Shown here in pieces: positions 37,150-63,134 of a DNA stretch of 64,000 bases. The DNA lies in NCBI GenBank assembly GCA_958296445.1, contig OY282565.1:1565570-1629569 (forward strand). Reading direction: 5' to 3'. Made by a program: the position numbers and the translations under genes. Each line of letters starts with the position of its first letter. Positions within the stretch are counted from its first letter, which is position 1. Under the pieces are notes generated by a model that was not told the DNA's origin, made no database searches, and was given only the letters and a program-made list of their open reading frames with translations. This DNA is from an uncultured Dehalococcoidia bacterium (lineage in GTDB: Bacteria > Chloroflexota > Dehalococcoidia > Lucifugimonadales > UBA3495).

Positions 37150-38790
37150 CTAGTCGGGTTGGCCGAGTTTTGGTTGGCGGCCTTGGGGGGGGCGGGCGCG
37201 TTGGGCGGGCTGGTAGTCGGCGGGGCGGGGGGGCAGGTCGAAGTTTTGGCCGGACAGCATTTCGCCGATGGTGCGTAGCTGGATTTTGGGGAAATCGCGG
37301 GCCCATAGGTCGGAGTGGTAGAAACCGGCGCCGACGGCTTCTTGGCGCATATCCCGGGTGGGCGGTTCTAGGGATATGAACAGTCCCAGGGCGGCCTGCT
37401 CCCGTTCTACTACGCCTTTGAGGTCGCGGATTTGGGGGGATGATACCCGCCCGCCCTTGACTTGGATGACGGCTTTTTGGGGGGTGCGGCGCGGGCCGTC
37501 TAGGAAGTAGAGCATACCGTCAACGCCGCGGTCGGGGCCGCGCTTTTGTTCGGATTGCGGCTGCGCCTGTAGCAGGGATACGGCCCAGAACTGGAACTGG
37601 TAGGGGTCTTGTTCCCAGAGGGCGCGGGCGCTGCCTTCGTCCTGCGGTTCGCCTACTACGGCGTAATCGCGGCCGGCTTCTAGGGCGAAGGCGGTTTTCA
37701 GGCGGTTTTTCATCAGGGCTACGGCTAGGTGGGTTATGTCTATTCCCAGCCACTGGCGGCCGAGCTTGTGGGCGGCGGCTACCGCCGTGCCGCAGCCGCA
37801 GAACGGGTCAAGCACTACGTCGCCCTCGTTGGACGAGGCGCGGATGATGCGCTCTAGCAGGGCTTCGGGCTTTTGGGTGGGGTAGCCTAGTCGCTCTTTG
37901 GCTTGGGATGCGACTGCCCCTATGTCTGTCCATATATCTTGTAAAGGGATTCCCGGCATTTCGTCAAGGTATCTTTTATATGCCGGGACTGCTCCTGGCC
38001 GCGTCTGAACGATGCGGCCGGCGTCAATCAATTCCTGCATTCTTTCTTTGGAATAGCGCCAATAACGGGTGACTCCCATAACTTCATAGCTGGGGTTTCC
38101 TTTGGCTGCGCCGCCGGGCCCGGTTAGGTTATCCAATCTATAGCGGCGTCCGGTGTCGGGTTCCTCGTAGCGATAAGACTGGTCTACGTACTCTTGGTCG
38201 TATTGAGTATAGGTTGGGTTCCAAGTCCAGTTGGAAGTCTTGGTATAAAACAAAATCGTATCGTGAACCCGCCCGTGCTGCCGCCTGCCCTGCCGGGTGT
38301 CGCTGTGGGCGCTGGTGCGCTTCCAAGTTATATCGGTTCGGAAATTCTGTTGCCCAAACACGGTGTCCATAAGCAGTTTCAGGTAATGGCCGGCGGTGGG
38401 GTCGCAGTGGAGGTAGATGCTGCCGGTGGGTTTGAGGGCGCGGCGCAGTTCGACTAGGCGGGGGGCCATCATTGTGAGGTAGGCCATCATAGCGTTGCGG
38501 CCGATGAACTGGCGGAAGGCGGTAATCATATCCTTGACTGCGGGTGGGACGTTTGGGTTGGCGATTATGTCTTGCTCGAAGGTGTGTTCGGTTTCTTGGG
38601 TCCATTCCCAGGTGTCGGTGAAGGCGCGGATTTGGGCTGGGGAATCCTCGCCGGTTTTTTCGCGGAAGAGGACGTTGTAGGATGCGTTGGAGTTGAAGGG
38701 TGGGTCGAGGTAGACGAGGTCTACGGAGGCGTCGGGGACGCGCTCGCGGAGGACGGGTAGGTTGTCGCCGTAGAAGAGGGCGTTGGGCAT
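37150..38790 (-). CDS. Beta-class N4/N6 DNA methyltransferase fused to a C-terminal Mrr-like (PD-(D/E)xK) restriction-endonuclease domain
   Basis: '[16 protein letters not shown]' and '[26 protein letters not shown]'. C-terminus '[12 protein letters not shown]...[23 protein letters not shown]...GLFISL'. Start was moved to ATG 38790. N-terminal half is paralogous to 11707..13224. Confidence 0.8.
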
Positions 38791-39452
38791 CAGGGGGCCT
38801 CGCGGGCTAGGCGCTCGGCGTCGCGGATGTAGTCGGCGGTGTCGCGGATGTCGTGGATGAGCAGGTTGACCGGCTCGACGTTGCGCTCGACTACGGCGGT
38901 CTGGTAGATGTCGTGGGATATTGTGGCGTAGCGGCCTTTTATGGGCCGCAAGTCTTGGTTTTGCTCCCGGTTCTGCCAGACAAGGCGCGTCAGGCAGTCG
39001 TAAGTCCATTTTTCGTCGTCCGGGGTGGTTTCCACGCCGGTTCGGGCCAATATCAGGGCGTTGGTGGCCTGTAAAGCGGCGGCCCAAGCCTTTTCCGCCG
39101 ACTTGTGCAGGAGTTCGCGGTTCCAGAGTTGGTTGGCCTCATCCAAGTATTGGACGGCCTCGGAGTAGGTGGCGTGGGCCTTGGCAAACAGGTCGGTCAC
39201 TCGCTTGGTTTCCAGCATATTTGCGTTCTCCGGGTTTTGGCTGCCCAGGCTGCGTATTCCGGCTGAAGTTTGCCCGACGGTGGGCATCCGCCCGGTGCGG
39301 GCGAGGATCAGGGCGTCGGTGGCCCGCTTGGTGGCGCCCCAGGCGGCTTCGGCGGCGATGCGGTGCTTGCCGAGCTCCAGGATTTCGATGGCGTCGGCGT
39401 AGAGCGCCCAGGCGTCGGCGAAGATGGCGGCGGCTTGGTCGGGTTCTGGCAC
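38790..39452 (-). CDS. PaREP1/HEPN-like helical protein (one partial plus one full repeat)
   Basis: Two 'AxEAAWGA / [22 protein letters not shown]' signatures. GTG start at 39452, preceded by AGGAGA. An internal ATG at 39218 is an alternative start. The stop overlaps the methyltransferase ATG as TGATG. Confidence 0.5.
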
Positions 39453-39484
39453 GGGGTCTCCTAGGGTTTGGCTGGGACGGCGGT

Positions 39485-39901
39485 TCAGGGGGCCTCGCGG
39501 GCTAGGCGCTCGGCGTCGCGGATGTAGTCGGCGGTGTCGCGGATGTCGTGGATGGTGAAGTCCAGGGGGTCTACGCTGCCGTTGCATAGCACTAGGTCGA
39601 AAAGATAGACGGACAGGTGGGCGTACCTGTCTTTCAGATCCTCGAGCCCCGGAACTTCTTTGGCCAGGCGCGACAGCAAGCCATAGGTATCGGCGTCGCT
39701 GCCGGGTTTGGGTTCGATGCCGGTGCGGGCGAGAATCAGGGCGTTGGTGGCCTGGTTGGCGGCGGCCCACGCTTTTTCCGCTGATCTAAGCAGTTCGCGC
39801 TTGTCCCAATGCTTTGTTGCGTCGTCCAGCCGCGCTAGGGAATCCGCGCTATTGACGCGGGCTTCGTCCAGTAGAGCGACAACCTGTTTGGTTTTTAACA
39901 T
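39485..39901 (-). CDS. PaREP1/HEPN-like helical protein
   Basis: 138 aa. '[22 protein letters not shown]'. The last ~70 nt are identical to the 3' end of 38790..39452. Confidence 0.5.
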   Translation of the reverse strand: MLKTKQVVALLDEARVNSADSLARLDDATKHWDKRELLRSAEKAWAAANQATNALILARTGIEPKPGSDADTYGLLSRLAKEVPGLEDLKDRYAHLSVYLFDLVLCNGSVDPLDFTIHDIRDTADYIRDAERLAREAP

Positions 39902-40010
39902 ACGTTTTCAGCCTCTGCCGCGGCCAATTGCTCCGTGGCGCGGATGTAGTTGGCGGCGGCTTGGTCGGGTTCTGGCACGGGGTCTCCTAGGGTTTGGCTG
40001 GGACGGCGGT

Positions 40011-40337
40011 TCAGGGGGTGCCTTGTTTTTTCATGTGCTTCAGGGACAGCCAGGTTCCAGTATCGAACTCCTGAAGGATGGCGAAATAGTTGGTGGCGTC
40101 CGGGCCTTGGCCCACTTTGCGCTGGTCAACGGCTAGGAGGCCGCCCAAGACTTCAAGCGCCCGGCTCAAATGGGCTGTTATGTTATCCGTTTCGTTATGG
40201 CGCATCAGCTCTTCTTGGATTTCCGCCAGTGAGTAGGCGAAATCCGGCCGCTCGGCGAGAAAGTGGTAGACTAGACGCATTACTTGTTCGCATTCCGCGG
40301 TTATTTCAAGCTCGAATTGGCGTCTGGTAACAGGCAT
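40011..40337 (-). CDS. Hypothetical small protein (possible winged-helix)
   Basis: 108-aa ORF, lower GC, same strand and tightly spaced with its neighbours. I recognise no family. Confidence 0.4.
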   Translation of the reverse strand: MPVTRRQFELEITAECEQVMRLVYHFLAERPDFAYSLAEIQEELMRHNETDNITAHLSRALEVLGGLLAVDQRKVGQGPDATNYFAILQEFDTGTWLSLKHMKKQGTP

Positions 40338-40357: not shown

Positions 40358-40612
40358 TTATTGGCCTACGTTTGGTATAGTATACACCCGGATGCCCACC
40401 ATAAATTTCGACTCAATCAGGTTGGCATCAACCAAATCTTCCAGAGTCAACACAACTTCGGCAGGGGTGACTCGACGCTCGTAGACCTCTAGGAGCGCAT
40501 ACAGGATCTCGTCGGCAGTAAAGGCTTCGTCGTTGCGAGCCTTTAGATACTGCAAAATCGGCACCCCGAAGTTGAGGCGCTCATCGTCGTATTCTTGTCG
40601 GCTTATGGGCAT
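40358..40612 (-). CDS. Hypothetical small protein (possible winged-helix)
   Basis: 84-aa ORF, lower GC. Starts 4 nt after the tpiA stop. 'ILQYLKARNDEAFTADEILYAL' resembles a wHTH recognition region. Confidence 0.4.
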   Translation of the reverse strand: MPISRQEYDDERLNFGVPILQYLKARNDEAFTADEILYALLEVYERRVTPAEVVLTLEDLVDANLIESKFMVGIRVYTIPNVGQ

Positions 40613-40616
40613 TGGG

Positions 40617-41390
40617 TTATGCCTTTGGGGTGGCGAAGGCGGCGGCTACTTGTAGGAACTGGTTGGCTTGGAGGCTGGCGCCGCCTACTAGGGCGCCGTG
40701 GATGCCGGGCTGGGCGGCGAAGGCGGCGGCGTTGGCGGGGTTGACGCTGCCTCCGTATAGCAGGGGGACGGCGTCGGCGGCGTCGCCGAAAAGGTCGCGG
40801 AGGGCGTCTAGGATGGCGCCGCCCATAATTTCCCCGGCGATTTCGGGGGTGGCGGCGCGGCCGGCGCCGATGGCCCATACGGGTTCGTAGGCGATTACTA
40901 TGTCGGTTATGTCCGGTACGTCGGCTACTCCGGCCAGCACTTGGCCTTCTACTACGTCGGCGGCTTGGCCCGATTCCCGGTGTTCTAGGGTTTCGCCGAC
41001 GCAGACTATGGGGCGGAGTCCGGCGAGGAGGGCGGCGCGGGTTTTGCGGTTGACCAGTTCGTCGGTTTCGCCGAAAAGCTGGCGGCGCTCGGAGTGGCCG
41101 AGGATGACGTACTGGCACAGGCCGCGCAGCATTTCGGCGGATACCTCGCCAGTGAAGGCCCCGGAAGGCTCGAAGTGCATATTCTGCGCCCCTACTCCGA
41201 CCCGGGTTGCGCCTGCGGATGGGCCGGTTACTGCGTCGCGCACTGCCGCTAGGGAAACGAAGGGCGGGCAGATTACCAGCTCGACGCCGTTGGCGTTGGC
41301 GGCTCCGGCGGCCACATCAGCGGCCAGGGCGGCGGCCTGGGCTAGGGTGGTGTTCATTTTCCAGTTTCCGGCGACGATGGAGCGGGGCAT
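40617..41390 (-). CDS. tpiA: Triosephosphate isomerase
   Basis: 'IVAGNWKMN', 'ILGHSERR' and '[12 protein letters not shown]'. Start was moved to ATG 41390. Confidence 0.9.
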
Positions 41391-41501
41391 AGCGATACCT
41401 CTGGATGTTGGATTGAGCGGAGGGAATAAGGCATTGCGGCGTTGCGCCATTGCGTTTATTCCCGGTTCCTCCGGCTTGGCGTTAGGGGTTTTCCGGCGGG
41501 G

Positions 41502-54394: not shown

Positions 54395-55198
54395 ATGCTG
54401 GGGTATGTCTTGATTTGGGAGGGAAGCGCGATGTCGGGGGAACCGGGCGAGGGCGAAGGGGACAACCGGCGGCGGGAAGCGACGGATGCGCTGGACGCGC
54501 TTACCGCAGAGATAGCCGCCTGCCGTCGCTGCGCCCGGCTGGTGGAACACCGCGAGCGCATCGGCGAGGTGAAGCGGGCGTCTTATGCCGGGTGGGACTA
54601 TTGGGCTAGGCCGGTGCCGGGCTTTGGCGACCCGATGGCGCCGTTGCTGGCGCTGGGGCTGGCCCCGGCGGCCCACGGGGGCAACCGCACCGGGCGGGTG
54701 TTCACGGGCGACGCTTCGGCTACGTTTCTCATTAAAGCTATGCACCAGGCCGGGCTGGCTAATCAGCCGGTTTCGGACCATAGGGAGGACGGGCTGGAGT
54801 ATGCCGGGGTGTACGTTTGCGCGGCGGTGCGCTGTGTGCCGCCCGGCGACCGCCCTACGCCGGAGGAGCAGCGAACCTGCCTGCCCTACTTGGCGCGGGA
54901 AATGAGGCTGCTGCCCAACCTGCGGGTGGTGCTGGCCTTGGGGCAAATCGCTTTTCAGGCCGCGCTGCGGGCGATAACGGCTCTTGGGACGGCTGAGGAC
55001 GCCGGGCGGCGTCTCAGGGGGAAGTTCCGGCACGGCGAGGTATACCGCTTTGGGCCGGGGCTGCCGCTGGTCGTCGCCTGTTACCATCCCAGCCCCCGCA
55101 ACACCAACACCGGGCGGCTTTCGATGGAGCAACTGGTGGAGACGCTGGCAATGGCGAAGGGGCTGAGCGAGGGGGGGGTTGCGGCGGGAAACTGGTAG
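54395..55198 (+). CDS. Uracil-DNA glycosylase superfamily protein (family 5/UdgB-like)
   Basis: 'CRRCARL...GLAPAAHGGNRTGRVFTGD...CYHPSPRNTNTG'. The start may be the internal ATG at 54431. Confidence 0.65.
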   Translation: MLGYVLIWEGSAMSGEPGEGEGDNRRREATDALDALTAEIAACRRCARLVEHRERIGEVKRASYAGWDYWARPVPGFGDPMAPLLALGLAPAAHGGNRTGRVFTGDASATFLIKAMHQAGLANQPVSDHREDGLEYAGVYVCAAVRCVPPGDRPTPEEQRTCLPYLAREMRLLPNLRVVLALGQIAFQAALRAITALGTAEDAGRRLRGKFRHGEVYRFGPGLPLVVACYHPSPRNTNTGRLSMEQLVETLAMAKGLSEGGVAAGNW

Positions 55199-55269
55199 GG
55201 CGTAGGGGATTCGAACCCCTGATCTCCGCCTTGAGAGGGCGGTGTCCTGGGCCGCTAGACGAACGCCCC
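55194..55269 (-). tRNA. tRNA-Glu (anticodon CUC), CCA encoded
   Basis: The reverse complement GGGGCGTTCGTCTAGCGGCCCAGGACACCGCCCTCTCAAGGCGGAGATCAGGGGTTCGAATCCCCTACGCCCTACCA folds as a cloverleaf. Anticodon loop is CTCTCAA. It closely resembles canonical bacterial tRNA-Glu. Confidence 0.85.
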
Positions 55270-55608
55270 ACCACACGATGGCCGCCCCTTGGCCCATAGG
55301 GGGACAGCTAGGGGAATATATCAAATTGGGCCGGGGTTGTAAAGGGTTGCGGGTTTTGGGGGGCGGTTGCGGAATTGGCCTTTGTCACGCTGCCGCTTCG
55401 TCCCTTGCCGCTTTGCCACCCTGCCCTTTTGTCACCCTGAGCGAAAGCGAAGGGTCTCGGCGGCATAGGGGAGATTCTTCGCTGCGCTCAGAATGACAGG
55501 GGGCTGTTCAGAATGACAGGGGGTTGTTCGGGATGACAGGGGGTTGTTCGGGATGACGGGGGGCGGGAGGGGATATTTTTTCAGTCGGCTTATAGGGCGT
55601 TGCCGGGG

Positions 55609-55637
55609 TTGCGCCGGGGGCCGTTGCTACGTATAAT
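55609..55637 (+). promoter_or_regulatory. Sigma-70-like promoter candidate for the tRNA-Val/Leu/Arg cluster
   Basis: TTGCGC at 55609-55614, a 17-nt spacer, then TATAAT at 55632-55637. This lies 20 nt upstream of tRNA-Val. Confidence 0.5.
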
Positions 55638-55656
55638 TGAGTATGTCCCGATTAGG

Positions 55657-55733
55657 GGGCGGTTAGCTCAGTTGGTCAGAGCGCCTCGTTCACACCGAGG
55701 AGGTCGGAGGTTCAAGTCCTCCATCGCCCACCA
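55657..55733 (+). tRNA. tRNA-Val (anticodon CAC), CCA encoded
   Basis: GGGCGGTTAGCTCAGTTGGTCAGAGCGCCTCGTTCACACCGAGG...GGTTCAAGTCCTCCATCGCCCACCA. Anticodon loop is TTCACAC. Confidence 0.85.
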
Positions 55734-55780
55734 GGTTGCGGGGCTGTTGGGAGCCGGGGCTGCGGCCCGGGTTCCGGGGA

Positions 55781-55866
55781 GCCGAGGTGGCGGAATGGCA
55801 GACGCGCTGCGTTCAGGGCGCAGTGTCCTTACGGATGTGTGGGTTCAAATCCCTCCCTCGGCACCA
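55781..55866 (+). tRNA. tRNA-Leu (anticodon CAG), long variable arm, CCA encoded
   Basis: GCCGAGGTGGCGGAATGGCAGAC...CTGCGTTCAGGGCGCAG...GGTTCAAATCCCTCCCTCGGCACCA. Anticodon loop is TTCAGGG. Confidence 0.85.
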
Positions 55867-55889
55867 TTATCGGCATTAAGCACTGGCGC

Positions 55890-55965
55890 GCGCTTGTAGC
55901 TCAGAGGATAGAGCGCTGCCCTGCGGAGGCAGAGGTCGTGAGTTCGAATCTCGCCAAGCGCGCCA
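55890..55965 (+). tRNA. tRNA-Arg (anticodon GCG), CCA encoded
   Basis: GCGCTTGTAGCTCAGAGGATAGAGCGCTGCCCTGCGGAGGCAGAGGTCGTGAGTTCGAATCTCGCCAAGCGCGCCA. Anticodon loop is CTGCGGA. Confidence 0.8.
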
Positions 55966-57958: not shown

Positions 57959-58050
57959 GATTGTCTGAATCAGGATTTTCAGGATTTCGGAATTTTCAGG
58001 ATTGTTCCAATCCGGTAAATCGTATAATCCTGAAAATCCTGATTCAGACA
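57959..58050. repeat. Family-3 palindromic element
   Basis: 'ttgtctgaatcaggattttcagg...cctgaaaatcctgattcagacaa'. Confidence 0.8.
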
Positions 58051-58074
58051 AAGAATTGGCAGGAGGGCGAAAGC

Positions 58075-58965
58075 GTGGCTAATGAGAGTCCTTTGGAGAT
58101 GGGCGGAGCCGGTGGCGTTGGGCCGGAGCTGGTGGATTATCTTTTGTACGAGCCGGAGGATTCGGGGATTCTCTGGATTAAGTTCAACCGGCCGGAGCGT
58201 ATGAATGCGCTCATTGGCAATTCGCAGGAAAGCGGCACCGTCGCCAAGGTGGGCGAGTATATGCGGGCCGGCGATGATGACCCCAACATCCGGGTCATTG
58301 TGCTGACCGGCGTGGGGCGCGGGTTCTGCTCCGGGGCCGATATGCGCCGCGACACCGACCCGGCGGTCACCGGCGACAACTTCATTGGCAACCGGGGGAC
58401 GGAGCAAGGGCCGGACGCAGCCCGGCAACACTTTTTCCACGGCTTCACCCACCTGCACCGCGATATATCGCTGATACGCAAGCCTACCATCGCTATGGTC
58501 AACGGCCCGGCGGTCGGTTCCGGGATGGATATGGCGCTGCATTGCGACATCAGGGTAGGCTGCGAAAACACCCGCTTTATCGGCTACCAGCAGTTGGGCC
58601 AAATCATCGAAAACGGCGGCAGCTATTACTTGCCCAAGCTGGCCGGGCTGGGCCGCGCTCTGGAGTTCGCTTATACCGGCCATTTGGACGCGCAACGGGC
58701 CTATGACTGGGGGCTGCTCAACTATCTGGTGCCGTCGGATGAGCTGGAGCAGACCACCCGCGACTTGTGCGACCGCATAATGCGAACCCCGCCGATGGTG
58801 CAGTGGATCAGTAAGCGCATAATGCGCACGGCAATGGACACCAGCTTGGAGAATACTATGGTGCTGACGTCCAACGCCGGGGGGATACTGAACGGGTCGG
58901 ATGACGCTGAGGAGGCGCGGCGGGCGTTTCTGGAGAAGCGGGCGCCGGTGTTCCGGGGGCGGTAG
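58075..58965 (+). CDS. Enoyl-CoA hydratase/isomerase (crotonase) family protein
   Basis: 'ILWIKFNRPERMNAL...VIVLTGVGRGFCSGADM...TIAMVNGPAVGSGMDMALHCDIR'. GTG start at 58075, after AGGAGGG; ATG 58099 is an alternative. Confidence 0.8.
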   Translation: MANESPLEMGGAGGVGPELVDYLLYEPEDSGILWIKFNRPERMNALIGNSQESGTVAKVGEYMRAGDDDPNIRVIVLTGVGRGFCSGADMRRDTDPAVTGDNFIGNRGTEQGPDAARQHFFHGFTHLHRDISLIRKPTIAMVNGPAVGSGMDMALHCDIRVGCENTRFIGYQQLGQIIENGGSYYLPKLAGLGRALEFAYTGHLDAQRAYDWGLLNYLVPSDELEQTTRDLCDRIMRTPPMVQWISKRIMRTAMDTSLENTMVLTSNAGGILNGSDDAEEARRAFLEKRAPVFRGR

Positions 58966-59430: not shown

Positions 59431-59433
59431 CGA

Positions 59434-60915
59434 ATGACGTCTAGGCCACAAACAGATCCGCGGCGGCCCTGCTGGATTGTTGGAACTGCCTATGGCGGAA
59501 CGGATGATCAGACGCCCCGTTTGTTGCGGGAAGGCATTTGGGAAAACGGCTGGGGTGTATATGGTGATGACAGGCTCCTTGAGCAGGTAAACTCTATGCG
59601 GCCAGGAGACCGCATCGCAATCAAGGCGGTTTTCGCCCAAAAGCGCAATCTGCCATTCCCTAACCCGGGGGAGTACACTGTTGGGGGAATGTACATCAAG
59701 GCAATTGGGGTAGTCACGAATAATCCCGGTGACGGCATTTACGTCAATGTTGATTGGACGTCCGTCAACCCGCCTCGCGTCTGGTACTTCAGCCAGTTTC
59801 GCCAAACACTGCACAGAATTGTTCCGGGGGCGTCTTGGGAAACGGATGCGCTGATTGACTTTACCTTTAACAACAAGCCTCAAGACATTAACCGATTCCG
59901 AAACGCCCCTAAATGGCGGGAGAAATTCGGCCAACTAATCGTCACTCAGAATGTTGCCGTTCCCGTCGCCCAAAATCCGGTGGCAGAATCCGACGATGAT
60001 GACGCGGGGGATGATGATTCTCCCGCGCCATACTCTATTGACGACATCATAGCCGACGGCTGCTTTCTGGAGCGCACCCGGTTAGCGGACATCGTTGAAC
60101 ACTGGCACTCCAAGAAAAACCTGATACTGCAAGGGCCGCCCGGCACCGGCAAGACTTGGCTGGCCCGCAAGCTGGCCTACGCTCTGATAGGGCAAAGGGA
60201 CGAAAGCCAGGTGCAGGCCGTGCAGTTTCATCCCAACCTGTCTTATGAGGATTTTGTGCGGGGGTATCGTCCGTCGGGCGATGGCAAGCTGGCCTTGATG
60301 GACGGGCCTTTTCTGAATATGGTTGAGGCCGCCCGCCAAGACCCCAATTCGGATTACGTGATAGTGATTGAGGAAATCAATCGGGGCAATCCGGCGCAGG
60401 TTTTCGGCGAAATGCTTACGCTGCTGGAGGCCGATAAGCGCAAGGAAAGCGAAGGGCTGGGCCTGAGTTACCGCGGGCGCGATGATGAGCGGGTATATGT
60501 GCCGCCTAACCTGTATGTCATCGGCACAATGAACATTGCCGACCGTTCCCTTGCGCTGGTGGATTTGGCCTTTCGCCGCCGTTTCGCCTTTGAGGATTTG
60601 GAACCCGAATTTGGCCGGACGTGGCTGGAGTGGGTGCGCGATAACTGCGGTGTTGACGGCCAGTTTCTGGCGGATGTGCGGCGGCGGATGCTTGCCTTGA
60701 ATCAACAAATCGCCGGTGACCGTAGCTTGGGCCGCCAATTCCGCGTGGGCCATAGTTATGTCACGCCATCGGCGGGCGATGCTATACGGGACGCCGCGGC
60801 GTGGTTTCGCCGGGTGGTGGAAAAGGAAATCGGCCCCTTGCTGGACGAATACTGGTTCGATTCCCCGGATACGGCGCGGCAGGCCAAAGACGATTTGCTG
60901 GCGGCCGGGCCGTAA
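59434..60915 (+). CDS. mcrB: McrB-like AAA+ GTPase subunit with a non-canonical (possibly PUA/EVE-like) N-terminal domain
   Basis: 'LILQGPPGTGKTWLARKLA', 'VQFHPNLSYEDFVRGYRP', 'VIVIEEINRGNPAQVFGEMLTLLE' and 'LYVIGTMNIADRSLALVDLAFRRRFAF'. Confidence 0.8.
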   Translation: MTSRPQTDPRRPCWIVGTAYGGTDDQTPRLLREGIWENGWGVYGDDRLLEQVNSMRPGDRIAIKAVFAQKRNLPFPNPGEYTVGGMYIKAIGVVTNNPGDGIYVNVDWTSVNPPRVWYFSQFRQTLHRIVPGASWETDALIDFTFNNKPQDINRFRNAPKWREKFGQLIVTQNVAVPVAQNPVAESDDDDAGDDDSPAPYSIDDIIADGCFLERTRLADIVEHWHSKKNLILQGPPGTGKTWLARKLAYALIGQRDESQVQAVQFHPNLSYEDFVRGYRPSGDGKLALMDGPFLNMVEAARQDPNSDYVIVIEEINRGNPAQVFGEMLTLLEADKRKESEGLGLSYRGRDDERVYVPPNLYVIGTMNIADRSLALVDLAFRRRFAFEDLEPEFGRTWLEWVRDNCGVDGQFLADVRRRMLALNQQIAGDRSLGRQFRVGHSYVTPSAGDAIRDAAAWFRRVVEKEIGPLLDEYWFDSPDTARQAKDDLLAAGP

Positions 60916-62006
60916 TGGTTGGGGCAGTAATATCGGGGCGGAGCCGGATTCCGGTAAGGAATATCTGGCTGTTGCTGCTTTACGCATCGGAGTTGTTCCG
61001 CCATCTGGATAGCAGCAGCAGGGCCGGGGTTGAGGATAACCCGGACGATATACCCGACCTGATAGCGGAAATTCTGGCCCGCGAGGTTGAGCGGCGGTTG
61101 GCGCGGAATCTGAGTACGGGATGGCGGACGCGCCAGGCCGATATAACCCGCGTCCGGGGCCGCATTGACTTGCGGCGCACGGAAACCCGCCGCCTGCTGG
61201 AGCGGGGCCGCGTGGCCTGCCGGTTCGACGAGCTTACCCTTGACACGCCCCGCAACCGTCTGGTGCGGGCGGCTCTGGTTAGATTGGCCGTCATTGCCGG
61301 GCGCAAGGATGTGGTCACCCGCTGCCGTTCCTTGGCGGCGCGGCTGGAGCGGTTGGGCGTGGGTGCCGGGAAACCGCCTCGAACCGAGGTTTCGGTAGAC
61401 ACATTCGGGCGTTGGGACGCCAGCGACCGTTTGATGGTGGCCGCCGCCAAGCTGGCCTTTGATTTGGCGTTGCCTAATGAACAACCGGGCGCAACGGCCT
61501 TGACATCGCCGTACCGGGAAATCGGGTGGCTGAGGCGACTGTACGAAAAGGCCGTTGCCGGATTTTATGACGTGGTTCTATCGCCCGGCGGATGGCGCGT
61601 TAATCACGGCAAAACTATTTATTGGCCGCACACCAATTCAACGCCCGGCGTTACAAATATACTGCCGTCAATGAAAACCGACATCACGCTGGAGCATCCC
61701 GGCTTGCGCCGCCGCATAATTGTTGACACGAAATTTACCGACATTCTAGTTTCCGGGCAATACGGGAACGAATCGTTGAGAAGCGGTTATATCTATCAGA
61801 TATACGCTTACCTGCGCTCTCAAGAAAACGGGAATGACCCGCTATCGCTCGATGCTTGCGGCCTGTTACTGCATCCGGCTATAGACGGGATGGTAGACGA
61901 ATCCGCGGTTATTCAGGGGCATCTTATCCGGTTCGCCACTGTTGATTTGGGGGCGGCTGCTGCGGAAATAAGGCGGCAATTGTTGGTTGTGATAGATCGG
62001 CCCTAG
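60915..62006 (+). CDS. mcrC: McrC-like nuclease subunit
   Basis: The ATG overlaps the mcrB stop as TAATG. 'IPVRNIWLLLLYASE' is the McrC N-terminal signature. C-terminal PD-(D/E)xK is 'MKTDITLEH...RRIIVDTKFT'. Confidence 0.7.
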   Translation: MVGAVISGRSRIPVRNIWLLLLYASELFRHLDSSSRAGVEDNPDDIPDLIAEILAREVERRLARNLSTGWRTRQADITRVRGRIDLRRTETRRLLERGRVACRFDELTLDTPRNRLVRAALVRLAVIAGRKDVVTRCRSLAARLERLGVGAGKPPRTEVSVDTFGRWDASDRLMVAAAKLAFDLALPNEQPGATALTSPYREIGWLRRLYEKAVAGFYDVVLSPGGWRVNHGKTIYWPHTNSTPGVTNILPSMKTDITLEHPGLRRRIIVDTKFTDILVSGQYGNESLRSGYIYQIYAYLRSQENGNDPLSLDACGLLLHPAIDGMVDESAVIQGHLIRFATVDLGAAAAEIRRQLLVVIDRP

Positions 62007-62138
62007 CCATTTTGCCCGTTGGGGCGGGCGCACGGCTGTGCGCCCCTACGGGTGCGGTTTGCGATATTGTTGGTGGGTGTTGGGGCGCGGTTGTGCGCCC
62101 CAACGGGTTCGATTGCGACACGTTGGGGCAGAGGGGAT

Positions 62139-63134
62139 TTACGCGGCTGCTGCTAGGGCGCCTACGGCTATGGAGGGTAGGCTTAGGGGTAGTTGCTGCC
62201 AGGTTTGGCCTTGGTCTTGGCTTTGGTAGAGCTGGCCGCCGTCGGTGCCGGCGTAGACTTCGTTGGGGTTGTTGGGGCGCCACTGGAAGGCCACTACCAT
62301 ATCCTCGGGGTCGTCGCCGCTGCCTAGGTCGGCTACCAGTTGCCAGGTTTGGCCGCCGTCGGTGGAGCGGTAGAACTGGGGGGATTTGCGGCGGGCGTTT
62401 TCGGATACTGTGACCAGGACTAGGTCGGCGTCGTCGGGGGCGGCGGCTATGTGGAGGGTGTAGCGGCGTTGCAGGCCGCCGTTTATCGGCGCCCACTGGT
62501 CGCCGCCGTTGTCGCTGCGGTAGGGGGCGCTGGCGGTGGCGGCGTAGACCCGCTGCGGGCGGTCGCTGCCGAGGTGGAGGCAGTGGATGTCGTCGTCTAG
62601 GCCGGGCAGTTGTTGCCAGCTATGGCCGCCGTCTTGGGAGCGGACTACGCCGCCGACTTCGATTCCGGCGTAGAGCAGGTTGGCGTCGGCGGGGGATGCC
62701 CGCAGGTCGCGGACGTGGGAGTCGCGGGTTGGGGCGTGGAAACCCCACTGGGCGGCTTCGGGGACGGCGCGGAACTCGGGGCGTTCCTGCCAGCTATCGC
62801 CGCCGTCTTTGGACTGGAAAATGGCGGCCGGTTCGCTGCCGGCGTAGACCGTTTCGGGTTCTAGGGGGTGGGCCAGCACGCTGTGGGCGTAGTCGCTGGG
62901 GTATGAGTCGGCGCGGTTCCAAGTGGCCCCGGCGTCGTCGGTGCGGTAGACGCCGGCCTCGTAGGCGGCCAGCCAGGCGCGTTCCGGGTTCAGCGGGCTG
63001 ACGGTCAGCCGGGCGGCGGCGTGGGGCAGCGGCGTAACCGGCCCCTGTTGCCAGGTTTTCCCGTCATCCTCGCTGCTGACGGCGCATACCCCGTCGTGCA
63101 TTCCCACGTAGATCAGGCGCTTCGCTTGCGTCAT
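62139..63134 (-). CDS. BNR/Asp-box repeat beta-propeller protein (Ycf48/sialidase-like fold)
   Basis: Seven Asp-box-like motifs: 'SEDDGKTW', 'TDDAGATW', 'SKDGGDSW', 'SQDGGHSW', 'SDNGGDQW', 'STDGGQTW' and 'SQDQGQTW'. Confidence 0.65.
   Translation of the reverse strand: MTQAKRLIYVGMHDGVCAVSSEDDGKTWQQGPVTPLPHAAARLTVSPLNPERAWLAAYEAGVYRTDDAGATWNRADSYPSDYAHSVLAHPLEPETVYAGSEPAAIFQSKDGGDSWQERPEFRAVPEAAQWGFHAPTRDSHVRDLRASPADANLLYAGIEVGGVVRSQDGGHSWQQLPGLDDDIHCLHLGSDRPQRVYAATASAPYRSDNGGDQWAPINGGLQRRYTLHIAAAPDDADLVLVTVSENARRKSPQFYRSTDGGQTWQLVADLGSGDDPEDMVVAFQWRPNNPNEVYAGTDGGQLYQSQDQGQTWQQLPLSLPSIAVGALAAAA

Follow-up and report, generated by a model that had tools for sequence, protein, structure and literature searches.

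Possible decayed toxin-antitoxin-like cassettes and a hotspot-flanking gene among PaREP1/HEPN proteins beside restriction-type genes of an uncultured Dehalococcoidia bacterium

Within a 64-kb stretch of DNA from an uncultured Dehalococcoidia bacterium (assembly GCA_958296445.1, contig OY282565.1, positions 1,565,570 to 1,629,569; this whole stretch is called the window in the following), three small genes of the PaREP1 branch of the HEPN superfamily are located directly upstream of two restriction-type modules. Two of them, P1 (38790..39452, minus strand, 220 aa, GTG start preceded by AGGAGA) and P2 (39485..39901, minus strand, 138 aa), precede a gene encoding a 546-aa fusion of an N6_N4 DNA methylase with a C-terminal Mrr-type PD-(D/E)xK nuclease (37150..38790, minus strand), hereafter methylase-Mrr. 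The third, P3 (59023..59430, plus strand, 135 aa), is a solitary PaREP1 gene in front of the genes of an McrB-like AAA_5 GTPase (59434..60915, plus strand) and McrC (about 60915..62006, plus strand). A preliminary description of this DNA had proposed that both modules share the same kind of small upstream partner, serving an accessory role as regulator, sensor, or toxin. All three open reading frames (ORFs) are real at these positions and on these strands, as is the TGATG overlap reported there, in which the A of the P1 stop codon is the A of the methylase-Mrr ATG (38790). Their interpretation, however, has to be revised. With about even confidence we consider P1 and P2 to be decayed toxin-antitoxin-like cassettes and P3 to be a gene flanking a hotspot, neither of them representing a dedicated restriction accessory.

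The assignment to the PaREP1/HEPN proteins was confirmed for all three, in the case of P1 and P3 directly by Pfam. In relation to a gathering score of 24.4 bits for PF05942 (PaREP1/PaREP8), P1 reached 45.5 bits (E 8e-12) and P3 51.3 bits (E 1e-13), the latter also matching a HEPN model at 5e-4. P2 taken alone remained below the gathering score (15.9 bits, E 0.013) and was assigned on the basis of its identity to P1, its homologues, and its fold. It shares 49% identity (E 6e-43) with the C-terminal 142 residues of P1 (the B part), the last 22 residues being identical, and many of its database homologues (~40% identity) bear PF05942. The AlphaFold model of P2 (pLDDT 93) consists of five helices, and its top Foldseek matches are the HEPN domains 3o10, 2hsb, 4nqf, 2q00, 7bxo, 1ufb, and 1o3u (TM 0.5-0.7, probability 0.94-1.0), including sacsin, AF0298, the PaREP1 structure 2q00, and HepT (TM 0.56-0.70 for these four). 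By sequence, a profile of the P3 family matches 2jpu/2q00, and a search of the PDB with a P2-type profile returned no match. A profile check for unrelatedness of the three proteins gave a distant relationship between P3 and P1/P2: BLASTP yielded E-values of 4e-4 and 0.02, a hidden Markov model (HMM) built from P2-like proteins matches P3 at E 1e-3, and hhalign assigned 62% probability to an alignment spanning the first two helices. P1/P2 and P3 are therefore HEPN-superfamily (PaREP1) proteins of two subfamilies, each of them expanded in Dehalococcoidia; the idea of the same kind of partner at both modules stands on the superfamily level and fails on the level of subfamilies. The P3-like proteins retrieved numbered over 1000 and the P2-like ones over 400, the few with a source name being from Chloroflexi bacteria. 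A phage origin of the PaREP1 genes was rejected, as the viral contigs of IMG/VR contained a single match for the P1/P2 type and none for the P3 type.

Comparison of the homologues revealed two types in terms of the catalytic motif of HEPN nucleases, P1 and P2 belonging to the fast-evolving B-type subfamily. Proteins of the A-type (120-129 aa) show a conserved R-x4-6-H-G-x-C-F-Y motif: the LHGxCFY core is found in 73 out of 92 proteins, and 70 of these 73 have the arginine 4-6 residues upstream. Proteins of the B-type (137-142 aa) are characterized by a WDRxxL insertion, and the LHGxCFY core occurs in none of 28. In the P3 family, LH is retained by 114 of 116 proteins, just 49 of the 114 having the arginine as well; P3 itself has the invariant HQASEKGWGAA and LHxNYY and lacks the arginine of Rx4-6H. 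The complete Rx4-6H motif at the start of the fourth HEPN helix is absent from the B part of P1, from P2, and from P3, and the A-type segment retained in P1 stops short of it.

In the window, both A genes lost their catalytic region via in-frame deletions preserving translation into B. In a same-species relative (locus L124), a separate 126-aa A gene and a 142-aa B gene are followed by a methylase-Mrr gene whose product is 100% identical across its length to the window copy. Compared with L124, about 170 bp are missing in the window between two CCGGAGA repeats. P1 is thus a chimera, in which this deletion joined A codons 1-78 (39219..39452, minus strand, the N-terminal half of a PaREP1 protein) in frame to a complete B-type copy (38790..39218, minus strand), with a Shine-Dalgarno (SD)-like GGAGA still persisting 8 nt ahead of the internal ATG at 39218. 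Upstream of P2, comparison with A-type genes identified a stub of 27 codons (39895..39978, minus strand), in which the first 9 A codons (VPEPDQAAA) are joined to the last ~17 (NYIRATEQLAAAEAENVC, followed by the stop codon), its stop overlapping the P2 start as ATGTTAA. A separate truncation, of A to 46 aa with B remaining intact, was found in L136/L138.

P1 and P2 are tandem duplicates, which reduces the number of independent adjacencies in the window from three to two. The two units, each composed of an A remnant and a B gene, have ends of 67-68 nt that are 100% identical (the exact repeat of B stop, spacer, SD, and first 9 A codons at 39425..39492 and 39951..40018, and the 3' 67 nt of P1 at 38790..38856 and of P2 at 39485..39551), whereas their interiors are just 49% identical on protein level. 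In parallel, P2 shares 70-74% identity with B genes from other genomes in comparison to 49% with the B part of P1. Identical ends around divergent interiors, together with the closer relation of P2 to B genes of other genomes, suggest that a B cassette was acquired or exchanged by recombination at the conserved ends. As a side observation, this pattern of B units recalls orphan toxin/immunity arrays.

The gene downstream of P1 encodes an enzyme with Pfam matches to N6_N4 DNA methylase (E 2.5e-44) and, C-terminally, to the Mrr_cat nuclease (E 8e-8), and the Mrr-type D...QxK residues can be read from its sequence (VDG...IQVK). It is unusually well conserved, with 74-100% identity among the best 120 of 8000 scored candidates, and it is found in at least six different genomic contexts. 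All five B-type homologues that were looked up have the methylase-Mrr fusion 0-2 kb downstream, in two unrelated contexts, which supports a recurrent association of the P1/P2 subfamily with this fusion. The first context (L124-L134, L139/L140) has the order tpiA-A-B-methylase/Mrr-miaA with 1-nt overlaps of A/B and B/methylase, the A/B overlap of 1 nt being seen in L125-L134. In the second (L135-L137), the slot is flanked by a pyridine-nucleotide oxidoreductase gene and Uma2/tatA, and two genes separate B from the methylase, namely one for a Shedu-type SduA_C or SLFN_AlbA_2 protein and one for a 231-aa protein. A third context (L141-L144) is composed of two A-type genes, a MerR/DUF433 gene, a variable gene (AbiJ_NTD4 or without assignment), and then the methylase. 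Across these contexts the identities of A, B, and methylase co-vary: they amount to 70/70/83% between L124 and L137 from different contexts and to 59/45/75% between L124 and L125 from the same one. Overall, A and B diverge most (39-70% identity) in comparison to the methylase (70-83%) and to the housekeeping neighbors (78-94%). Judged from these comparisons, the co-varying, fast-diverging A-B pair with its methylase appears to behave as a co-transferred conflict module. Two small, co-directional, and overlapping genes in a module recurring in three contexts furthermore correspond to the layout of type II toxin-antitoxin systems.

In the reverse direction the link is looser. None of three methylase-Mrr homologues (74-76% identity) that were looked up had an adjacent PaREP1 pair; upstream of them we found DUF433 plus PIN_10 in one case, nothing in another, and an inverted PaREP1 gene 2 kb off with Panacea and TIR in the third. 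Two other A-type genes sit alone amid metabolic genes, and no methylase-Mrr gene was found beside 43 metagenomic A-type loci. A JGI metagenome scan with a P2-type alignment detected distant A-type relatives alone, mostly on short contigs, and is uninformative on the B-type. The link between A-B pairs and methylase-Mrr thus appears real and recurrent, yet not obligatory. The list of occupants of the region 5' of methylase-Mrr comprises PaREP1 pairs, DUF433 plus PIN_10, TIR_2, Panacea, SduA_C, SLFN_AlbA_2, and AbiJ_NTD4. This variable content upstream of a conserved gene marks the 5' region as a slot for toxin-antitoxin and defence genes, of which PaREP1 pairs are a frequent occupant. Downstream of one solitary A-type gene (L145:4444-6003), four tandem co-directional genes (111-114 aa, no Pfam match) next to a DUF429 gene were noticed, possibly another small-gene array.

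The survey of the second module of the window gave a different result. A P3 pattern search in the contigs of one GTDB genome per species yielded 447 loci, of which the best 80 were surveyed. All of these 80 belong to metagenome-assembled genomes (MAGs) of Dehalococcoidia/Chloroflexi, often with several copies per genome, in disagreement with the earlier statement that the family is mostly known from archaea; tandem arrays of 2-4 copies were present at 11 of 78 loci. By tblastn searches for McrB, McrC, and the methylase, McrB was detected within 6 kb at merely two of the 80 loci and adjacent at none, which speaks directly against the suggested association of P3 with McrBC. The neighbors (78 downstream, 77 upstream) are mostly housekeeping genes, e.g., for the Der/EngA GTPase, molybdopterin oxidoreductases, OTCase, and enoyl-CoA hydratase (ECH). 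Defence models matched about six of the 78 downstream and three of the 77 upstream neighbors, five LeoA matches being the same five GTPases, and PADLOC contained no model matching P3.

Six genomes have the synteny NHL-SDR-ECH-P3...BNR in common with the window, in which the ECH gene (57961..58965, plus strand) forms the conserved left flank of P3 and a BNR/Sortilin-like gene (62139..63134, minus strand, 331 aa) the conserved right flank of a variable slot. The interval from the P3 stop to the 3' end of the BNR-like gene (59431..62138) is hypervariable, with seven different contents in eight syntenic genomes. It hosts GmrSD/HEC-05 in L001, a 202-aa ORF on the opposite strand in L002, 122-aa and 357-aa ORFs plus a 261-aa ORF judged Uma2-like by eye (no family-library scan) in L003, a 487-aa protein without any family match in L004, a 273-aa ORF on the opposite strand in L008, and DUF429/PDC-S44 in L011. 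Elsewhere, the P3-McrB-McrC arrangement was encountered only at L150, which belongs to the same assembly, and thus the same species, as L124. On DNA level, homology is interrupted between the stop codons of P3 and of the BNR gene, and P3 is 83-91% identical across the syntenic genomes, similar to the core flanks. More distant P3 orthologues occur in other contexts, followed by a convergent PLD/DrmC-like nuclease (L012), LigB-like (L005, L006, L009), or MutS (L010) genes. Since P3 is conserved like the core flanks, while the cargo is variable and homology breaks off in between, P3 is resident in the chromosome and borders the left side of a hotspot in which different defence or unassigned genes have been swapped, McrBC being the cargo of this species. 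The gap of 3 nt between the P3 stop and the McrB-like ORF at 59434, likewise pointed out in the preliminary description, is real and strain-specific: in L150, P3 has 132 aa and is followed by 24 nt, and in the window ~21 nt including the native P3 stop are deleted. The position of McrBC after P3 thus reflects the insertion point and the narrow gap a recent 21-nt deletion. We infer that P3 is at most co-transcribed with McrBC and not a conserved subunit. According to the canonical MNIADRS motif of McrB and IIVDTKF of McrC (PF10117, E 2e-17; D...DxK), the McrBC of the window is an ordinary type IV DNA restriction system.

Around P3, the 3' end of the ECH gene including its stop is duplicated downstream as 46-59-nt direct repeats (85-91% identical) in L001 (5885-5943 and 6410-6468), L003 (5912-5957 and 6415-6460), and L004 (5861-5914 and 6412-6465), which looks like the insertion of P3 as a cassette of ~0.5 kb. 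In L003, the 261-aa ORF is additionally flanked by a second, 66-nt copy of the BNR gene's 3' end. Target duplications as a general trait of PaREP1 cassettes were rejected, having been found at four of 78 P3-like loci in comparison to none of 77 controls; they represent a feature of the ECH locus.

In the window, the minus-strand genes are arranged in the order tpiA (40617..41450), two small ORFs of 84 aa (40358..40612) and 108 aa (40011..40337), P2, P1, methylase-Mrr, and miaA, and the plus-strand genes in the order ECH, P3, AAA_5/McrB-like, and McrC, followed by the convergent BNR-like gene. A profile search detected no PaREP1-like ORF in the window besides P1, P2, and P3. The two small ORFs between tpiA and the P2 unit are co-directional with them and confined to the lineage of the window; they share no significant mutual similarity, the 108-aa ORF being without family and the 84-aa ORF having a weak HTH_20 match, and among their weak Pfam matches a helix-turn-helix (HTH) domain is the most plausible. 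Two copies of a dispersed repeat have disrupted the 84-aa gene in L124. In the window, a dispersed repeat with the core TCATTCTGAGCAAAGCGAAGAATC has 11 copies in the 64 kb (3331, 5954, 11692, 17995, 21532, 35483, 35644, 37041, 52011, 55473, and 56067) in comparison to zero expected by chance, one of them lying between the methylase-Mrr stop and miaA. It resembles elements of the miniature inverted-repeat transposable element (MITE) or repetitive extragenic palindromic (REP) type and yields spurious ORFs translating as "...SEAKNL...RFAQGD...". The interval separating McrC from the BNR-like gene (62006..62114) contains a tandem pair of GC-rich 54-nt copies sharing 72% identity, both including a palindrome (GGCGCACGGCTGTGCGCC); this pair may represent a REP-like element or a bidirectional terminator. 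An Rfam scan of the window found four tRNAs, neither module containing any; they form a cluster at 55193..55965, ~3 kb upstream of ECH-P3 (Glu-CTC on the minus strand; Val-CAC, Leu-CAG, and Arg-GCG on the plus strand). Promoter and terminator scans gave results at or near shuffle expectation.

For the A-B pairs, a mechanism can be proposed in which A would dimerize into a HEPN RNase acting as a toxin. B would be a pseudo-HEPN paralogue neutralizing A, probably through an A-B heterodimer in which no composite R/H site forms, the pair thus working as a toxin-antitoxin or abortive-infection cassette. Riding with methylase-Mrr, this cassette may back up the single-chain restriction-modification (R-M) enzyme in analogy to the "second line" model of the PrrC type (PMC3710099). 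The system of the window would then have decayed to two B genes without their A partners, of which one still contains the N-terminal hairpin of A; both probably persist as harmless remnants, or as retained "antitoxins", and not as active effectors. In its strongest form, the proposal would make A-B an undescribed HEPN toxin/pseudo-HEPN antitoxin pair, i.e., an Rx4-6H PaREP1 RNase neutralized by a degenerate paralogue instead of an MNT nucleotidyltransferase, diversified by cassette exchange at conserved ends, and guarding methylase-Mrr in Dehalococcoidia. This far-reaching version we regard as unlikely; it would answer the question raised in 2013 of what, if anything, serves as antitoxin for PaREP1-type HEPN proteins.

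Several points weigh against our interpretation of decayed cassettes and a hotspot-flanking gene. The Foldseek E-values of the P2 model are weak (0.01-0.3), as is usual with small helical bundles, and the samples are small, with 12 context look-ups and three reverse look-ups starting from methylase-Mrr. The pattern of B being kept and A being lost is biased because B proteins were used as queries of the searches. The toxin-antitoxin model is deduced from the motif pattern, gene coupling, rapid divergence, and the sharing of a slot with known toxin-antitoxin and defence genes. In the first context, B overlaps methylase-Mrr by 1 nt in all relatives, indicative of translational coupling, and this could mean that B acts together with the methylase-Mrr enzyme. 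Finally, the cargo after P3 is co-directional and close in five of eight syntenic genomes, counting the window and L150 as one. The spacing amounts to 3 nt in the window, to 24 nt in both L150 and L011, and to 66 nt in L003, and in L001 and L004 the genes overlap or lie 6 nt apart; P3 may therefore have a generic role for whatever lies downstream.

Among the other explanations, a pure co-location is the one that we take most seriously, although we consider it rather doubtful. PaREP1 genes would be small selfish or drifting cassettes that gather in defence hotspots without functional interplay, their linkage to methylase-Mrr being shared hitch-hiking. The many copies per genome and the tandem arrays would fit well, as would the duplicated gene ends of 46-59 nt around P3 in three genomes (L001, L003, L004), the divergent B cassettes between identical 67-68-nt ends, the variability of both the slot upstream of methylase-Mrr and the one downstream of P3, and the dispersed repeat element in the region. 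It is less easily reconciled with the co-variation of A, B, and methylase-Mrr and their joint recurrence in three unrelated contexts, nor do the 1-nt overlaps of A/B/methylase, suggesting a single operon, speak in its favor; flanking repeats were found at just four of 78 P3-like loci, no recombinase was seen, and the family is nearly absent from viral contigs.

The remaining two alternatives assign the PaREP1 proteins a function for the neighboring enzymes. That they are dedicated accessories (regulator, sensor, or toxin) of restriction modules, methylase-Mrr and McrBC having the same kind of partner, as initially proposed, appears improbable. In the window all three genes lie directly in front of restriction-type genes and in the same orientation, the overlap of B with methylase-Mrr is conserved, the P3 slot is often filled by type IV or nuclease-type genes (McrBC, GmrSD/HEC-05, DUF429/PDC-S44), and a linkage of HEPN and R-M genes is established for 16 HEPN clades (PMC3710099). 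This stands against the lack of an adjacent McrB at all surveyed P3-like loci with their mainly housekeeping neighbors, the conservation of P3 in line with the core flanks while the cargo changes, and the occurrence of methylase-Mrr without PaREP1. Moreover, a canonical McrBC with an intact McrC nuclease motif does not need an extra nuclease, the subfamily of P3 is not that of P1/P2, and the complete catalytic motif is missing in all three proteins. According to the other alternative, B-type proteins would be non-catalytic nucleic-acid- or nucleotide-binding HEPN regulators, a role proposed for MtlR-like HEPN proteins, and would control the expression or activity of the downstream methylase-Mrr gene, A being dispensable. 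B lacks Rx4-6H yet is intact at every locus, whereas A was lost repeatedly; B overlaps the methylase start, its translation signals were kept in both A deletions, and motif-less HEPN domains have been proposed to be RNA-binding (PMC3710099). However, no gene of the module evolves faster than B (39-70% identity in comparison to 70-83% for the methylase), an unexpected trait in a regulator dedicated to a conserved enzyme. Methylase-Mrr homologues without B exist, and two of the contexts have B separated from the methylase by other genes. To this regulator model we assign the lowest probability of all.

A linkage between HEPN and restriction genes is in general already known. As seen in the genomes compared here, the large bacterial (Dehalococcoidia) expansion of PaREP1, its division into A-type proteins with Rx4-6H and B-type proteins without this motif, encoded in pairs, and the repeated occurrence of such pairs in linkage with a methylase-Mrr fusion appear to be new. 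If the toxin-antitoxin reading of the A-B pairs is true, PaREP1, an orphan HEPN branch without an assigned partner, gains a toxin/pseudo-toxin logic as well as a concrete link to a widespread methylase-Mrr enzyme of uncultured Dehalococcoidia. For genome annotation, the window offers the lesson that P1 is a deletion chimera and the tight mcrB spacing a strain-specific accident, and that adjacency in a single window is weak evidence for an expanded family located at defence hotspots. The two hotspots, 3' of P3 and 5' of methylase-Mrr, can in turn be mined for unknown defence genes, e.g., those of the 487-, 357-, 321-, and 231-aa proteins without family match.

In respect to known systems, HEPN genes in R-M neighborhoods have been described for 16 clades, including DUF4145 with McrBC, and the HEPN domains linked to R-M systems are found fused with nuclease or helicase subunits rather than with methylases (Anantharaman et al. 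2013, PMC3710099). CoCoNuT systems are of the McrBC type with HEPN effectors (Bell et al. 2024, PMC11090510); they are characterized by a coiled-coil McrB homologue whose GTPase signature is variant, by an McrC nuclease that is missing or inactive, and by RxxxxH in the HEPN effector. They resemble P3-McrBC in having a HEPN-family gene beside McrB and McrC genes. In the window, however, McrB has the canonical MNxxDRS (MNIADRS) and McrC keeps D...DxK, neither coiled-coil nor CnuE nor helicase genes were seen, RxxxxH is absent from P3, and the link of P3 is not conserved; a CoCoNuT identity was therefore rejected on account of the canonical McrB and McrC motifs. The multi-pronged defence of the PrrC/RloC type, in which inhibition of the R-M partner releases an RNase activity, is similar to A-B/methylase-Mrr in terms of a small HEPN gene being co-directional and overlapping with an R-M-type gene and recurring across contexts. 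It differs from the window, where the copies have no catalytic motif, an ABC/ATPase sensor domain is absent, the partner combines methylase and nuclease in one protein and is linked by adjacency only, and the McrBC adjacency is not conserved. With the HEPN-MNT (HepT-MntA) toxin-antitoxin systems of type II/VII, the A-B pairs share a tightly coupled two-gene cassette including a protein with the HEPN RNase motif (A), and the P2 model aligns with HepT (7bxo/6m6u) at a TM of about 0.66-0.70. Here, the putative neutralizer would be a degenerate HEPN paralogue. An identity with HEPN-MNT was rejected, as no MNT family was found among the scanned ORFs of the window or in the precomputed Pfam annotations of neighbors at loci L124-L150.

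The closest relatives are the PaREP1/PaREP8 proteins themselves (structures 2q00/2jpu, Sulfolobus solfataricus), described as an archaeal/thermophile HEPN-T family with tandem repeats, in which the H is conserved and the R is not (Anantharaman et al. 2013, PMC3710099), and without an adjacent MNT gene, their status as toxins being unknown (Makarova et al. 2013). P1 and P3 share with them the membership in PF05942, P3 in addition the profile match, and the genes studied here have the helical HEPN fold, the tandem paralogue arrays, and the missing MNT neighbor in common with this family. Especially the P3 family, with a conserved H and no conserved R, displays the classical PaREP1 condition. A linkage to methylase-Mrr fusions is not listed for the family in Anantharaman et al. 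2013 (PMC3710099). The proteins of this study differ by their large expansion in bacterial Dehalococcoidia MAGs and by their division into A-type relatives having Rx4-6H and B-type proteins (P1, P2) that lost both R and H.

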